DNA of 64,000 bases from Gammaproteobacteria bacterium bin55 (GCA_002238665.1 MPMU01000001.1:25075-89074), one strand, 5' to 3'; counted from the first letter of the stretch, positions 30,651 through 64,000 are shown. Program-made: numbers and translations. The notes: a model not told the origin generated them from the letters alone.

Positions 30651-31923
<1,273 letters not shown>

Positions 31924-59093: not shown

Positions 59094-60278
59094 ATGTCAG
59101 AGCTACCTTTAGCTGGATTAAAAGTACTTGATCTAACCATTGCGCGAGCTGGTCCAACCGCGGTCCGTCTGTTAACAGATTGGGGCGCTGACGTCTTCAA
59201 GCTAGAACCACCCCCATCGGATCCAGGTTCGATCACTGGAGGGAGACATGGACCAGACGAGCAGAATCTTCATCGAAATAAACGAGGCATCTGTCTTAAT
59301 CTAAAGAATGAAGCAGGGTACGAAGCTTTTCTGCAAATGGTTGAGCAAGTCGATATTTTCGTTGAAAACTTCCGCGCTCCAGTAAAAGCAAAGCTCAAAA
59401 TTGACTACGAAACACTTAGTGCGATCAATCCTCGGTTGATTTATGCGAGTATTTCCGGTTTCGGTCAAGAAGGGCCATATTCTGATCGTGCAGGCGTCGA
59501 TCAAATCGTCCAGGGCATGAGCGGCTTGATGTCCATTACTGGTCAGAAAGGTGGAGAGCCAACTCGAGCAGGGATTGCTATCAGCGATACGACCGCCGGA
59601 ATGTTCTTGGCTCAAGGCATCCTATTAGCTCTCATCAGTCGAACTACGAGCGGCAAAGGCCAATGGGTTCACACATCGTTGCTGGAAGGGATGCTATGTA
59701 AGTTGGATTTTCAGGGTGCACGCTACACCATGAGAGGCGATATTCCTCAGACACAAGGTAACAATCACCCCACTAGTTTTCCGATGGGAACGTTCAAGTG
59801 TAAGGACGGTTACATCAATCTTGCCGCTCCAACCGACAGGATGTGGTACCGCTTTTTGGATGCAATTGACGATAATGAATTGCGTTCAGACCCGTTATTC
59901 AGTTCTGTTCGTAACCGAATGAAAAACAAAGATAAATTAGAGACTTCTATGAACTCAGTACTTCAGAAGTTCGATGTTGCGACGCTTGTCGAACGAGTCA
60001 ATAAGGTAGGTGTACCGTGTGGCCCTATATTCAATGTAGGTGAAGCATTTGAAGACACACAAGCAAAATTTCTGAAGATGACAAAACCGGCAAAGCATCG
60101 GACGATAGGGGAGGTAAACCTAATTCGTTCACCGATTAATATGTCAGCGCATCCGCATACAGAAACTTTCGATTCAGCTGCGCCTGATCCAGGTGAGCAC
60201 ACAGCTGAGGTGCTTGCCGAATTTGGATTTGTGCAAGAGCAAATAGAAGAGCTCTATTCCGTAGGTGCAGTGAGCTAA
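59094..60278 (+). CDS. Family III CoA-transferase (CaiB/BaiF type)
   Basis: Motifs LAGLKVLDLTIARAGPTAVRLLTDWGADVFKLEPP and GFGQEGPY. 394 aa. Confidence 0.9.
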   Translation: MSELPLAGLKVLDLTIARAGPTAVRLLTDWGADVFKLEPPPSDPGSITGGRHGPDEQNLHRNKRGICLNLKNEAGYEAFLQMVEQVDIFVENFRAPVKAKLKIDYETLSAINPRLIYASISGFGQEGPYSDRAGVDQIVQGMSGLMSITGQKGGEPTRAGIAISDTTAGMFLAQGILLALISRTTSGKGQWVHTSLLEGMLCKLDFQGARYTMRGDIPQTQGNNHPTSFPMGTFKCKDGYINLAAPTDRMWYRFLDAIDDNELRSDPLFSSVRNRMKNKDKLETSMNSVLQKFDVATLVERVNKVGVPCGPIFNVGEAFEDTQAKFLKMTKPAKHRTIGEVNLIRSPINMSAHPHTETFDSAAPDPGEHTAEVLAEFGFVQEQIEELYSVGAVS

Positions 60279-60303
60279 AACTGACAAATACTGTCAGTGA
60301 AAC

Positions 60304-60340
60304 AAAAAAAGCACCGAATGACTTACTGTCACACGGTGCT
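60304..60340 (-). terminator. Rho-independent terminator ending the minus-strand RraA-like/redoxin/UGSC operon
   Basis: On the minus strand: AGCACCG..TGAC..GTCA..CGGTGCT stem followed by TTTTTTT (A7 at 60304-60310). Confidence 0.6.
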
Positions 60341-60385
60341 CAGTAATTCGCAAACTCTTGTGATTGCTTAGATCAACACTTTCAC

Positions 60386-60925
60386 CTAGTTTCCGTTGCC
60401 GCCTTCGTTAGCAACCAAAGCATCAACGACGAGCGACAAACACTCATCTGCTTTTGATTGCATCTCTTCGTCGGTAGCATCCTGAATTGGATGAGGGACA
60501 AAGACACAAGGTGCACTCTTCAACCCCAGCGCTGTTGCTTGAGTTGCTGCTGCTGTTTTAAATTCGCTCGAGGCGATTGTTACTGCTGGAATCCCTTGGA
60601 TTTCAAACCATACCGTATCATGCAAACTGCACGTAGTACAGGATCCTCAGTCAGCGAGAGCTTCGACGACAAGGTCGGCTTGGCTCTTTATCTCCTTACG
60701 AAGCTGATCTGGAGCAGGTTTTGTGAAAGTGGGTTTCGCATATCTGGTCACCTCAACTTTCGGGTACTTCTCACTTAATAGATGCTCAAGACGATCTAGA
60801 AGTACGTTACCTCTAGGTTTCCTGATATCTAATAACGCTAACCGACCTTTTAACTCAGATGTTCTCGATGCCAATTGGCGTTCGATTGGTCTGCGTTCGT
60901 CAGTCGGGTCCAAAATGGTGGTCAT
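60386..60925 (-). CDS. UGSC-family predicted selenoprotein (in-frame TGA at 60647-60649 read as Sec)
   Basis: Track ORFs 60647..60925 and 60386..60625 share one frame and are separated only by a TGA. Read-through gives ...VVEALAD-U-GSCTTCSLHDTVW. There is a single AGGAGG RBS (60933-60938) with an ATG, and a single terminator. Confidence 0.7.
60608..60641 (-). promoter_or_regulatory. SECIS-like stem-loop immediately 3' of the in-frame UGA
   Basis: mRNA CUGUACUACGUGCAGUUUGCAUGAUACGGUAUGG starts 5 nt after the UGA. It folds to about 13-14 bp interrupted by a bulged A and a 2-nt bulge. The apical loop contains GUU about 19 nt from the UGA. Confidence 0.5.
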
Positions 60926-60952
60926 TCCGAATCCTCCTTGGTTATTAAGAAA

Positions 60953-62506
60953 TTATGACTCAATTTTCTTGGAGACTGGGATGGAGCCCATAGGTCCACT
61001 TGCCCAGCCATGGAATGCTGCGGAGAATTTTCCTGCATCTGACCCCGCAACAAAGATATGTATGTTATCTACCGAGGAAAACTTGGGCACCTTCGTTTGC
61101 CTCTTTTCTTCAGACATTTGCTCGTAAAGTGCTCTAGGTATTCCTACTCCACTGAAATCGTCCTCGACTAACTCCTGCGGTAGTACGGCACTCTTTTCCT
61201 GAATTCCTTCCTTTACATCCTGCTTCGAGTAGTTTTGTGTAGCTAGCGTGTCAACGTGTTCCGGACAAATCACGAGGATAGTGTCACCATTTCGATGTGC
61301 TCGCACATGGTGGATAGCTCGCATGGACAGCGCAAAACTCCCGATTAACTGTTCAGCGGATCTAGATGTCTGATCGATAATCTGCATCGGTCCACCTGAC
61401 ATAGCAAACACTGAGACAACAGAATCATCTTTTTGGAATCCCTTCTCGACGTGGTAGGGGTCCCAGTTGCTACGTTCTTCCCACTCAGCGAAACACATTG
61501 TGTATTTCATTGGGTTTCCGAGGGTTGATCTTTCGGTACCGCCTGGTTGAGCACCACCAATATTTCGGATCGCCAATCTAACGGCTCGACCGATCGCGGC
61601 ATTTGTACGCGTGCCTTGCCCTAAGGCTGACATTTTCATATTGACACCGATTTCGTGGCGAATCGGTCCATTCAACACCATGACTGGTGTAGCTCCCATC
61701 GTGGTTGCGAAGACACCGTGACAGTTGAACTCATCATTGCAAATAGCTTCAATCGTTGAGATTACTACCGGCAGGTATTCTGGCTTGCAACCTGCTAGTA
61801 CGGCATTCACCGCAATTTTCTCAACCGTTGCCGGCGCTAAGTTCGGAGGGATAGTCGCAACGAGTTCCTGTGGTTCACGGTTTGTTCCCGATAGCATCCG
61901 AATGACTCGTTCGGGAGTTGGTGGGACAACCGGTAGTCCATCCGTGAATCCTTGATCAAACATGAATTCATGGATGTCATCCTGTGAAGCGATTTCGAGT
62001 CGCCTTGCCCGAAGAGGACTATTCTCAGATTCCGCGCGGAGTCGATCTTGGATTATGGGATCCTGTGTAAGTGATCCACAACCGGGTCGCCATTCCGGTA
62101 ATTGGTCCCAATCGATCTCTGTGGATGGAAAGTGTTTCTCGAAAAACGTTCGCCATTCCTGTCTCTCAAATCCAATTAACTCATCTAATTTTTCACCGTT
62201 TGAATCCGCTAAGAAACAGTGGGGAACCGTTTCGAGATCGTAAGCGAATGAGACCTTTAGTATTGAGTCATCTAAAAGGGGAGCAGTAAGCTCATGATTC
62301 TTTACAAGAATCTCGTTGCCTTCCTGCGTTTGACCCGGTACCAAGACTCGAGTGCCAGAACTATCGTGAACCTTTTGAATGAGAGGAAGGACTAGATTAC
62401 AAGTAGGGCAATCCTCTTTGACAAAGCAGACAAAAGTTGCTTGGTTGTCAGGGAAGTGATGATCAGAACCATTCTGGTCAACGAGTTGAAAAGCTGGTAG
62501 TTCCAT
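60953..62506 (-). CDS. Redoxin/thioredoxin-like (CPTC) domain fused to a large uncharacterised domain
   Basis: N-terminal roughly 130 aa are TlpA/redoxin-like (FVCFVKEDCPTCNLVLPLI). The remaining roughly 380 aa (DGLPVVPPT..., NAAIGRAVRLAIRNIGG) match no family I can name. Confidence 0.6.
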   Translation of the reverse strand: MELPAFQLVDQNGSDHHFPDNQATFVCFVKEDCPTCNLVLPLIQKVHDSSGTRVLVPGQTQEGNEILVKNHELTAPLLDDSILKVSFAYDLETVPHCFLADSNGEKLDELIGFERQEWRTFFEKHFPSTEIDWDQLPEWRPGCGSLTQDPIIQDRLRAESENSPLRARRLEIASQDDIHEFMFDQGFTDGLPVVPPTPERVIRMLSGTNREPQELVATIPPNLAPATVEKIAVNAVLAGCKPEYLPVVISTIEAICNDEFNCHGVFATTMGATPVMVLNGPIRHEIGVNMKMSALGQGTRTNAAIGRAVRLAIRNIGGAQPGGTERSTLGNPMKYTMCFAEWEERSNWDPYHVEKGFQKDDSVVSVFAMSGGPMQIIDQTSRSAEQLIGSFALSMRAIHHVRAHRNGDTILVICPEHVDTLATQNYSKQDVKEGIQEKSAVLPQELVEDDFSGVGIPRALYEQMSEEKRQTKVPKFSSVDNIHIFVAGSDAGKFSAAFHGWASGPMGSIPVSKKIES

Positions 62507-62510
62507 CGGA

Positions 62511-63200
62511 TTAGTGTATCTCTGCTGAATCGCCCCAAGCTTTACGCAGGCGAGCCATATTGAATCCTTCTTCTTGCGCTGCGTCGATGATTACCCGTTC
62601 CTTCCGAGCGATCGCGGCGGCGGCTTCAGGCACGTCTGCTGCAACATCCTTCGGAATGATTACTGCACCATGTTGATCTGCGTGAACTAATTCTGTATCG
62701 CTCACTCGCATACCTGACACATTGATGTCTATTCCGTATGCAACGACATGAACAAACGCGTGTGATGGGCCAACTCGGTCAGCCAGCATCTGAAATCCTG
62801 GAGCTATATCGGGGAGATCTCTGACACTGCCATCGGTGACCAATCCCAAGCAACCGAGACCTTTGTGGATATTGCTGTTCACTTCACCCCAAAACGAACC
62901 ATATCCTCGTGCCTCGCCATCTAAGTCTTGGATAAGAATGATTGCTGGTTTTGGTCCTTCATCGATATATGCATAGTAATCTTGAGAGACGTTTTTGGTG
63001 TCAGCCGGGTGCGCAGCTCGGATGGTTGCAGTTCGCGCGAATCCCACCATGCTACCTAGTTCCGGCCGAGTACACACCAGTGGTTGTGTTGTATAACCAA
63101 AGCCCCTTCGTTGAGGTACGACGGTTTCCAACGCGTTGCAAACGGTAGGTGTATCTAGCTTAGTGAGTTCGGCTAAAAGAGCCGCATCAATTTCAGACAT
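62511..63200 (-). CDS. RraA-like / HMG-CHA aldolase-oxaloacetate decarboxylase family protein
   Basis: Motifs TPTVCNALE, WGEVNSNIHKGLGCLGLVTDGSVRDL and VHADQHGAVIIP. ATG 63200 is preferred; an in-frame TTG lies at 63221. Confidence 0.8.
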   Translation of the reverse strand: MSEIDAALLAELTKLDTPTVCNALETVVPQRRGFGYTTQPLVCTRPELGSMVGFARTATIRAAHPADTKNVSQDYYAYIDEGPKPAIILIQDLDGEARGYGSFWGEVNSNIHKGLGCLGLVTDGSVRDLPDIAPGFQMLADRVGPSHAFVHVVAYGIDINVSGMRVSDTELVHADQHGAVIIPKDVAADVPEAAAAIARKERVIIDAAQEEGFNMARLRKAWGDSAEIH

Positions 63201-63279
63201 ATAACTGTATCCTGCTGGCAATGAAACTTGATTCCGACAGGGTTACTAACCCTTCGGCGAAAAAAAGATTGTAGGAGTT

Positions 63280-63320: not shown

Positions 63321-63395
63321 GGGTGTTTAGCTCAGTGGGAGAGCAATGGCCTTACAAGCCATAGGTCGTAGGTTCAAGTCCTACAACACCCACCA
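63321..63395 (+). tRNA. tRNA-Val (anticodon UAC)
   Basis: Acceptor GGGTGTT/AACACCC, anticodon loop CTTACAA, T-loop TTCAAGT, encoded CCA. Confidence 0.9.
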
Positions 63396-63418
63396 ATTCC
63401 TCACCGTGTTTCTAGGTA

Positions 63419-63495
63419 GGAGCGGTAGTTCAGCTGGTTAGAATACTGGCCTGTCACGCCAGTGGTCGCGGGTTCGAGTCCCGTCCGCTCCGCCA
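63419..63495 (+). tRNA. tRNA-Asp (anticodon GUC)
   Basis: Acceptor GGAGCGG/CCGCTCC, anticodon loop CTGTCAC, T-loop TTCGAGT, encoded CCA. Confidence 0.9.
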
Positions 63496-63689: not shown

Positions 63690-63989
63690 CTAGGCGGTTG
63701 CGTTGAGCAAGTCTGAATCAAGAAAGATATGTGGACCCTGTGTCCTTTGTCTCTCAGTTGTTGGCGTGTCCTGAGTTTGTACCTTTATCACGCATTCTCC
63801 AACTTCCTCTGACGATAGATTTAGGTTTCTCATCATTAACAGAGGGGCAACCTCCATTATTGCTTTCACAATGCCGCGGGGTGTTTTGGCTTCTAAGGTC
63901 AATCCTGGAATGTCGGAGCTACTGCCCACCAACATTCCGCTTTCCTCACACTTTAAAACGTTCACAAGATAGCTCGTTGGCTGTCCCAT
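63690..63989 (-). CDS. DUF1902 / HicB-like fold small protein
   Basis: YLVNVLKCEESGMLVGSSSDIPGLTLEAKTPRGIVKAIMEVAPLLMMRN resembles the DUF1902 pattern (..VA.S.D.PGL.TEA.T...L). ATG 63989 is preceded by GAGGA. Confidence 0.5.
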   Translation of the reverse strand: MGQPTSYLVNVLKCEESGMLVGSSSDIPGLTLEAKTPRGIVKAIMEVAPLLMMRNLNLSSEEVGECVIKVQTQDTPTTERQRTQGPHIFLDSDLLNATA

Positions 63990-64000
63990 ACTCAATCCTC

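Follow-up and report, generated by a model that had tools for sequence, protein, structure and literature searches.

Which proteins does a UGSC selenoprotein work with, and which of the genes around it share its function? This question is raised by a locus in a 64,000-nucleotide stretch of DNA from Gammaproteobacteria bacterium bin55 (GCA_002238665.1 MPMU01000001.1:25075-89074), the whole of which is called the window here. UGSC proteins are a catalogued and abundant selenoprotein family without an assigned function (PMC2398784, PMC1976440, PMC9402790, PMC9312934, PMC13188914), and in the window the UGSC gene is the last of three consecutive minus-strand open reading frames (ORFs), A, B and C. 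A first reading, made from the DNA alone and called the sequence-only reading below, had proposed these three genes as one selenium-dependent redox module. Comparing the locus with related genomes, we find that the conserved unit is the pair of B, through its large C-terminal core domain, and UGSC, and not the three genes together. We consider, with a confidence slightly above even, that this pair forms a two-component thiol/selenol enzyme which is widely distributed and depends on the thioredoxin system for its recycling, and that the RraA-like gene A is facultative. The three genes are:

62511..63200, minus strand: gene A, RraA-like protein of 229 amino acids (aa) from its ATG
60953..62506, minus strand: gene B, fusion of a thioredoxin-fold domain and the core, 517 aa, with its ATG 4 nt past the TAA of A
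60386..60925, minus strand: gene C, UGSC selenoprotein, 179 aa when read through an in-frame TGA, with its ATG 27 nt past the stop of B

All proteins were compared with the Pfam and NCBIfam profile libraries at their curated cut-offs, and with the PDB for sequence and fold. Gene C scores 166.4 bits against both NCBIfam NF041046 (cut-off 125) and Pfam PF24696 (cut-off 25), and with both cut-offs passed, its selenocysteine (Sec) motif U93-G-S-C96-T-T-C99 and the hairpin described further below, it is a full member of the UGSC family. UGSC had no match at E <= 10 among the PDB sequences, searched as a single sequence and as a profile.

The pairing was assessed in a genome scan with one genome per species and a 10-sequence alignment, which found at least 583 UGSC loci, of which the best 80 were kept. 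Seventy-three of these have at least 1.7 kb upstream of UGSC and are informative for the adjacency of B. A B homologue lies directly upstream of UGSC on the same strand in 69 of the 73, with a gap of -4 to 146 nt (median 29). These cases span Gammaproteobacteria (mostly records titled Pseudomonadales), Alphaproteobacteria (records of Hyphomonas, Sulfitobacter, Phenylobacterium and Caulobacteraceae), Dehalococcoidia and one record titled Candidatus Sulfopaludibacter. B is also found directly upstream of UGSC on a Planctomycetaceae contig. At loci L088 and L091 core-only genes are followed by a Sec-type UGSC, and the pairing holds for Cys-type UGSC at 40% identity. Moreover, UGSC stands beside at least one core gene at all 11 annotated plasmid or chromid loci, which come from six haloarchaea, one actinobacterium, one alphaproteobacterium and three betaproteobacteria.

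Besides being neighbours, the two proteins are also found fused. The best 150 relatives of the core were classified with local hidden Markov models (HMMs): 74 consist of the core only, about 27 carry a thioredoxin domain (with or without linker) ahead of the core, about 11 are tandem core-core proteins and 28 are fused to UGSC, 17 in the order UGSC-core and 11 in the order core-UGSC. In the order core-UGSC the fused proteins stop at '...ALAD' or '...AIGD', the position of the Sec UGA, and in the order UGSC-core they either contain 'CGSC' or start immediately past the UGA. The sequence-only reading had taken the neighbouring CxxC protein as the functional partner of UGSC, and the adjacency and the fusions bear this out. 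The name 'UGSC-containing protein' goes back to Zhang and Gladyshev, and the GOS paper mentions a 'UGSC/Unknown_1' fusion (PMC2398784). In view of records like P0137 and P0174, which are fused or read through, 'Unknown_1' is probably the B core; the papers searched describe no other partner.

Three side observations concern the arrangement of the pair. Tandem-core proteins of about 710-740 aa are P0374, P0383, P0397, P0423 and P0464, with one such locus at L089:5001-7154, in whose short available flank no UGSC was found. In three haloarchaea (L176, L178, L180) core-UGSC-core occurs as separate genes. Plasmid p2-T1 of Acidovorax sp. T1 (L177, 7022-8479), an IncP conjugative plasmid, carries a Sec-type UGSC (GD-TGA-GSCTSW) with a core, next to IS1071 and IS91 transposases, and its record annotates only a 96-aa fragment. 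Evidently the core-UGSC pair can be mobile.

The place of gene A is a separate matter. By its profile match gene A is an RraA-like protein of the class II aldolase-oxaloacetate decarboxylase family: it reaches 52.9 bits against Pfam RraA-like (PF03737; cut-off 24.5) over positions 1-152 of the 152 in the profile, in agreement with the RraA/HMG-aldolase/oxaloacetate-decarboxylase membership given by the sequence-only reading. Its residues R126-D127 lie in the segment 'tdgsVRD', which aligns with 'vdagVRD' of the HMG/CHA aldolase of P. putida (PDB: 3NOJ). We take the R-D pair of 3NOJ to be the catalytic Arg and the metal-binding Asp, with both of which the pair of gene A is aligned. Gene A shares Pfam membership and the R-D pair with the RraA/HMG-CHA aldolase/oxaloacetate decarboxylase family, but it falls below every NCBIfam equivalog cut-off, the best being NF006093 (48.1 bits against 208). 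The LigK/PcmE HMG-CHA aldolase model TIGR02798 gave 28.9 bits against 304.5, and an equivalog-level assignment of gene A to that aldolase or to RraA proper is not supported. The nearest solved structures are the uncharacterised proteins 3K4I and 5X15.

Does gene A belong with the pair as one dedicated selenium module, in which the RraA-like enzyme makes or uses a 2-oxoacid for B and UGSC? The short gaps in the window, the R-D pair shared with the HMG/CHA aldolase and the order A-B-UGSC in 12 of the 80 UGSC genomes, with A-B gaps of 5-31 nt, would all suit such a module. These 12 genomes form one gammaproteobacterial clade, the one nearest to the window, which also keeps the divergent tRNA-Val/Asp genes and the convergent genes for a coenzyme A (CoA)-transferase, a major facilitator superfamily (MFS) protein and an acyl-CoA dehydrogenase; in the other 68 genomes no RraA-like gene is near the pair. 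The neighbourhood analysis across UGSC members which the sequence-only reading had proposed as a test of its three-gene linkage thus upholds the link for B and fails to do so for the RraA-like gene.

The reverse test was made on 80 metagenomic loci with RraA-like genes 51-75% identical to A, using tblastn and HMMs. None of the 80 holds B, the core or UGSC, although in 46 cases the sequence extends 1.9 kb or more downstream. A CoA-transferase III gene occurs in 28 of the 80, without B and UGSC; at several of these loci it is an orthologue of the one in the window and shares its convergent orientation, frequently with an intervening transporter gene. This suggests that RraA and CoA-transferase form a catabolic unit of their own. 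Since 28 of the metagenomic loci pair these genes and none holds B or UGSC, gene A belongs primarily with the CoA-transferase/transporter unit. Judged from these gene orders, B-UGSC is inserted between A and the CoA-transferase gene in the clade of the window, and A is a facultative pathway neighbour and not a member of the conserved pair. In the window, the plus-strand segment 55387..60278 contains, besides two acyl-CoA dehydrogenase-like ORFs, genes for an MFS-like membrane protein and for a CoA-transferase III, the latter being convergent with the operon and ending at 60278.

One further finding bears on gene A. In Halalkalicoccus jeotgali and Halorientalis litorea, RraA-family genes are found no more than 5 kb from the core-UGSC cluster, here too accompanied by a CoA-transferase gene, and because it recurs in two haloarchaea, the link between RraA and the pair is not a pure accident of synteny. 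The context of a 2-oxoacid pathway, which the sequence-only reading had drawn from the RraA-like enzyme, or of a carboxylate pathway therefore remains plausible, but as a facultative one; as a unit, its three-gene module is not upheld, and we regard a dedicated module of all three genes as unlikely.

What the pair does has to be read from its parts, and for gene B these are:

62123..62506, minus strand: N-terminal thioredoxin-fold domain, aa 1-128, from Foldseek and weak HMM matches
62399..62410, minus strand: CPTC active-site motif (C33, C36), invariant in 121 homologues
61982..62122, minus strand: conserved linker, aa 129-175, with the motif W-R-P-G-C143-G-S and its Cys codon at 62078..62080
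60953..61981, minus strand: C-terminal core, aa 176-517 and stop, about 340 aa, the constant partner of UGSC
61787..61789, minus strand: codon of the near-universal Cys240 (AGC motif) of the core, from the conservation in 82 members

The core is a large family. Using phmmer with B residues 130-517 against 1.84 billion representative proteins, we found 5339 relatives at E <= 1e-3 and 1290 at E <= 1e-30. Against Pfam, NCBIfam and the PDB sequences the core gave chance matches only, with single proteins as well as with 39 diverse members (E <= 1). Positions conserved to at least 95% in 82 diverse cores are D189, G190, P192, P196, A232, A238, G239, C240, P242, G280, G296, G298, N302, G306, R307, L311, E341, W348, G356 and G488. 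Among the cysteines C240 is present in 96% and C338 in 88% of the 82 members, and C240 alone is near-universal. Modelled alone, the C-terminal part of B has a predicted local distance difference test score (pLDDT) of 81 and a predicted template modelling score (pTM) of 0.81. The best fold match of the core in the PDB is a class I fumarate hydratase (E 7.5e-4, probability 0.82). This Fe-S enzyme was rejected as the family of the core, with a template modelling (TM) score of 0.26, a root mean square deviation of 17 Å and C240 as the only Cys conserved across the core family, so that the core has no site for a three-Cys cluster. Class I fumarate hydratase acts on dicarboxylates, like the suspected substrates of core-UGSC discussed below.

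Only the first ~125 residues of B resemble known families, the other ~390 matching none, and Foldseek with the full-length model gave thioredoxin-fold matches only. The model of the N-terminal domain matches ResA and StoA with E ~1e-8 and a TM score (target) of 0.72-0.76, which together with the invariant CPTC motif confirms the thioredoxin-fold CxxC domain noted in the sequence-only reading. B remains below the redoxin family cut-offs, with 20.3 bits against 26 for AhpC-TSA, 23.2 against 170 for ResA and 23.5 against 210 for StoA. Its start MELPAFQLVDQNGSDHHF enters the fold directly, and by inspection there is no N-terminal hydrophobic segment, anchor or signal; B is probably cytoplasmic, as far as its N-terminus tells. 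B therefore shares fold and CxxC with the TlpA/ResA/StoA-type oxidoreductases in aa 1-128 but differs from them in scoring below all cut-offs, in having no membrane anchor or signal and in that three quarters of the protein are another domain. By the same comparisons, its database name 'TlpA family protein disulfide reductase' covers only an accessory domain which is dispensable across the family. For P0001, the closest B homologue, no contig location was found.

The linker between the two domains is invariant or nearly so in the sets of 121 and 39 homologues and is retained in a B homologue with only 38% identity (locus L084). Among the representatives it mostly accompanies the thioredoxin domain, and it is missing from most core proteins. 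Its pLDDT is 40-60 in both models, as expected for a mobile segment, which makes it a candidate flexible relay arm on the strength of the models. We also considered C143 in 'PGCGS' as a pyruvoyl self-cleavage site like those of GrdE and PrdA. This was rejected: it has no sequence support, and most core proteins are without the linker. As an observation of its own, P-G-C-G-S of the linker (62078..62086) resembles A-D-U-G-S of UGSC (60641..60649), both containing [C/U]-G-S; the two could have a shared binding site or be partners in a mixed selenenylsulfide.

Genes for the supply of electrons are found beside the pair in other lineages. The Cys-type locus L084 carries trxB, the 38%-identical B homologue (with CPTC, PGCGS and AGC kept), UGSC(Cys) and a GntR gene, with TctABC divergent, and its trxB scores 384 bits against TIGR01292 (cut-off 343). 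The order is trxB-trxA-core-UGSC in Arthrobacter sp. ERGS1:01, core-UGSC-trxB in Roseovarius sp. THAF8, where a CaiB/BaiF CoA-transferase and a TRAP transporter are adjacent, and trxB-tctC-SDR-core-UGSC in Variovorax sp. SRS16. In these three lineages separate trxB, or trxB and trxA, genes stand in for the fused thioredoxin domain. Furthermore, TrxB-like flavoproteins adjoin the cluster in V. boronicumulans and Haloterrigena turkmenica and lie 3 kb off in Halosolutus. In the window a trxB homologue, 49% identical to that of L084, is located at 30654..31580 on the minus strand, 30 kb from the operon; it may be the housekeeping reductase that feeds the thioredoxin domain of B. An electron relay beside the Sec protein had been suggested in the sequence-only reading, and with trxB, or trxB and trxA, in the cluster elsewhere and a fused CPTC domain here, a relay from the thioredoxin system to UGSC is likely.

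The proposal of a two-component thiol/selenol enzyme is based on the adjacency of core and UGSC, their fusion in either order, the one conserved Cys of the core, the U-x-x-C(-x-x-C) motif and the recurrent thioredoxin and TrxB genes. The catalytic unit would be the ~340-aa core in a physical complex with UGSC, with a reductive chemistry to which UGSC would contribute U93 and C96/C99 and the core C240. Electrons would pass from NADPH to thioredoxin reductase, on to the thioredoxin domain of B (C33/C36) and possibly to the C143 arm, and the last step would be the reduction, following every turnover, of a selenenylsulfide or disulfide that joins U93 to C96/C99 (or C240). A small substrate would be bound in the core, with recycling of the kind that thioredoxin provides for the glycine reductase selenoproteins. 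From the gene neighbours, the substrate might be a di- or tricarboxylate that is transported, or the CoA ester of one. At this locus gene A would be co-transcribed as part of a facultative RraA and CoA-transferase (plus MFS and acyl-CoA dehydrogenase) catabolic neighbourhood.

The gene neighbours in question are recurrent and not universal. They comprise CoA-transferase III, acyl-CoA dehydrogenases, CoA-ester/HMG-CoA lyases and isocitrate-lyase/PEP-mutase proteins, as well as TctC/TRAP/TAXI carboxylate transporters and GntR/LysR regulators. They hint at a carboxylate or acyl-CoA as substrate. A gene annotated as phosphosulfolactate synthase was seen near core-UGSC at L172:4488-4955 and L173:3660-4448 (Natrinema zhouii, Arthrobacter sp. 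ERGS1:01), and TauD-family dioxygenases in 13 of the 80 UGSC genome loci. An organosulfonate theme is possible from these neighbours.

The same parts could be read as an antioxidant system, with UGSC as a Sec peroxidase or thiol-disulfide reductase which is recycled by a peroxiredoxin- or TlpA-like partner and has no specific metabolic substrate. The N-terminal domain of B is like AhpC/TSA and ResA-type redoxins, the literature puts UGSC among thiol-oxidoreductase-like selenoproteins (PMC2398784), and the linkage to trxB would suit a peroxidase too. However, what accompanies UGSC throughout is the 340-aa core with its many conserved polar residues and not the redoxin domain, and cores without a thioredoxin domain are common, as the core-only class of the 150 representatives shows. 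Around the pair one finds genes for catabolic enzymes, for transporters of carboxylates and for regulators of the GntR/LysR type, and not genes against oxidative stress. Peroxidase activity has been reported for GrdB, which speaks in favour of this alternative. Overall we give the antioxidant reading a low probability.

Among the closest known systems is selenoprotein B of the glycine, sarcosine, betaine and D-proline reductases (GrdB/F/H, PrdB). The grd operons carry thioredoxin reductase and thioredoxin genes, and several core-UGSC lineages likewise have both in their cluster. Gene C shares with GrdB/F/H and PrdB the UxxCxxC spacing, U93-GS-C96-TT-C99, which has been described as the grdB/F/H signature (PMC6778437). 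Among 23 UGSC proteins, seven gave weak matches to GrdF and five to GrdB over the Sec region (best E 4.4e-4). B and the core had no match to Grd/Prd families even at E <= 1. The large partner differs, being an unrelated and unannotated domain in place of the GrdE/PrdA pyruvoyl proprotein. The hosts of UGSC differ as well and include heterotrophic Proteobacteria (Hyphomonas, Sulfitobacter, Variovorax) and haloarchaea, mostly aerobes and not amino-acid-fermenting anaerobes. The pair may work like selenoprotein B, but on present evidence it is not a member of that family, and the likeness to GrdB serves as a lead only.

Several observations weigh against the enzyme model. Gene C reaches 12.6-16.1 bits against TIGR01917, TIGR01918 and NF040794, whose cut-offs are 65-800, and Pfam GRDB (PF07355) matches none of the 23 UGSC proteins at E <= 1. 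A GrdE/PrdA-like pyruvoyl subunit, GrdA, GrdC and GrdD are not present in the operon, which consists of A, B and C only. C99 is missing from many of the fused UGSC forms. The core has no confident structural relative and could act as isomerase, lyase or carrier instead of as a reductase. No UGSC was found in the available flank of two divergent cores, P0374 (tandem) and P0469 (core-only). Finally, the neighbourhoods are heterogeneous and speak weakly for any one substrate class.

In 21 of the 80 genomes, mostly alphaproteobacterial, the pair is located in an island with the order selA-selB-tRNA(Sec)-B-UGSC, usually on one strand; the tRNA(Sec) gene directly precedes B in all 21 and is itself usually preceded by selA and selB, both verified by Pfam. 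The tRNA-Sec gene lies ~100-300 nt upstream of B, for example at L032:8188-8282; the loci are L023, L029, L032, L034, L035, L037, L043, L048, L049, L053, L054, L059, L060, L062, L068, L069, L070, L074, L075, L076 and L079. No sel genes were found in the flanks of the other 59 Sec-type loci, and selA, selB and tRNA(Sec) were not found in the window. The simplest reading of this gene order is that the pair is the selenoprotein system for which those 21 genomes keep their decoding genes. Its place in the island could also mean that the pair handles selenium itself, in delivery, storage or detoxification. We find this quite improbable, because decoding genes linked to the selenoprotein they serve are the simpler reading, Cys-type UGSC-core clusters occur without nearby sel genes (archaea included), and the 59 other loci are without them too; no selD was noticed, though no systematic selD search was made.

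All of the above presupposes that the in-frame TGA of gene C encodes Sec. The features concerned are:

60647..60649, minus strand: Sec93 codon, the in-frame TGA, in ...VVEALAD-U-GSCTTCSLHD...
60613..60641, minus strand: hairpin of the selenocysteine insertion sequence (SECIS) type, directly 3' of the UGA, in the centroid fold
60619..60633, minus strand: apical stem-loop CGUGCA-GUN-UGCAYG, with a G-first loop, 19 nt past the UGA

The TGA is found at the aligned codon in all 80 related genomes, inside AD-U-GSC[T/M]TCS, and the protein is conserved on both sides of it, whereas distant UGSC homologues have Cys at the Sec position. All 71 distinct sequences retain the six-pair apical stem, which varies solely by G-C versus G-U. 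Codons +5 to +7, in the 5' arm, are fixed as ACG TGC AGT without synonymous variation in 81 of 81 distinct sequences, while the other conserved degenerate codons in the 80-codon span use 2 to 6 codons each. Such frozen synonymous sites in the stem indicate a constraint on the RNA itself, of the kind that a bacterial SECIS would impose, and we predict that the hairpin is a bacterial SECIS-type element with a role in Sec insertion; no Rfam family matches it. The UGA of gene C is recoded as selenocysteine, as judged by these comparisons, and gene C is the UxxCxxC selenoprotein that the sequence-only reading had recognised. That the TGA is an ordinary stop between two unrelated small ORFs has next to no probability left and is refuted by these data, since the in-frame conservation past the TGA, the Cys at that exact position in homologues, the RNA constraint on the hairpin and the full-length match above the curated cut-offs outweigh the one point in its favour, namely that most database records show the gene divided at the TGA by the gene caller.

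The remaining features of the locus concern its transcription:

60932..60939, minus strand: Shine-Dalgarno sequence AAGGAGGA of the UGSC gene, within the 27-nt B-C spacer, read from the sequence
60302..60341, minus strand: intrinsic terminator of the operon, an interrupted 13-bp G+C-rich hairpin (60309..60341) followed by U7
63321..63495, plus strand: tRNA-Val and tRNA-Asp, divergent from the operon

The spacers of 4 nt (A-B) and 27 nt (B-C) agree with the sequence-only reading, which had let gene A start at 63221. This point lies at an upstream in-frame TTG, an alternative start, and the homologues align from the ATG at 63200. From the gene spacing alone we infer that A, B and C are transcribed as one unit. 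The terminator, which had also been predicted, lies ~45 nt beyond the stop codon of gene C and is confirmed as a centroid hairpin (minimum free energy of the 106-nt segment -29.2 kcal/mol, z = -1.9); it was seen only by folding and not listed by the pattern scan for terminators. Upstream, the predicted divergent tRNA genes are in place, but the promoter scan gave no minus-strand sigma-70-like promoter for the operon, and the sole promoter-like element is TACAAT at 63268..63273, found by eye. G+C is flat at ~0.47 across the locus and thus gives no sign of recent acquisition. A 101-aa ORF at 63690..63995 on the minus strand follows the tRNA genes and closes the window.

UGSC accounts for ~8% of marine selenoprotein genes (PMC9402790). 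From the first ocean metagenomes (PMC2398784) up to 2026 (PMC13188914) it has been listed without a known function, with a 'Trx-like fold' as the published guess, and the selenoprotein operons in the 2026 review do not include UGSC. The statement of the sequence-only reading that no pathway is described for UGSC agrees with the literature searched (PMC2398784, PMC9312934, PMC13188914). Relative to that literature, the core partner, the linkage to thioredoxin and TrxB and the linkage to selABC are new for UGSC.

Read together with its relatives, the locus assigns to UGSC a constant partner, from a large domain family that has 5339 representative relatives and is covered by no Pfam or NCBIfam model. 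The comparison also provides a probable electron source, either as a thioredoxin domain or as trxA and trxB, and a metabolic setting among carboxylate transporters and CoA-transferases. Tractable cultured hosts, or Cys-type versions whose expression needs no Sec machinery, are found in Arthrobacter sp. ERGS1:01, Roseovarius sp. THAF8, Variovorax, Haloterrigena turkmenica and Halalkalicoccus jeotgali, and this makes the old question of UGSC function directly testable. As a more far-reaching idea, offered tentatively and at well under an even chance, core and UGSC may represent an unrecognised class of thioredoxin-driven selenoenzyme (a Cys enzyme in archaea and some bacteria), derived distantly from the selenoprotein-B module of glycine and proline reductases with a new catalytic partner. 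It would serve reductive di-/tricarboxylate or acyl-CoA catabolism in heterotrophic bacteria and haloarchaea, and it may be the main reason why many Alphaproteobacteria keep selA-selB-selC.

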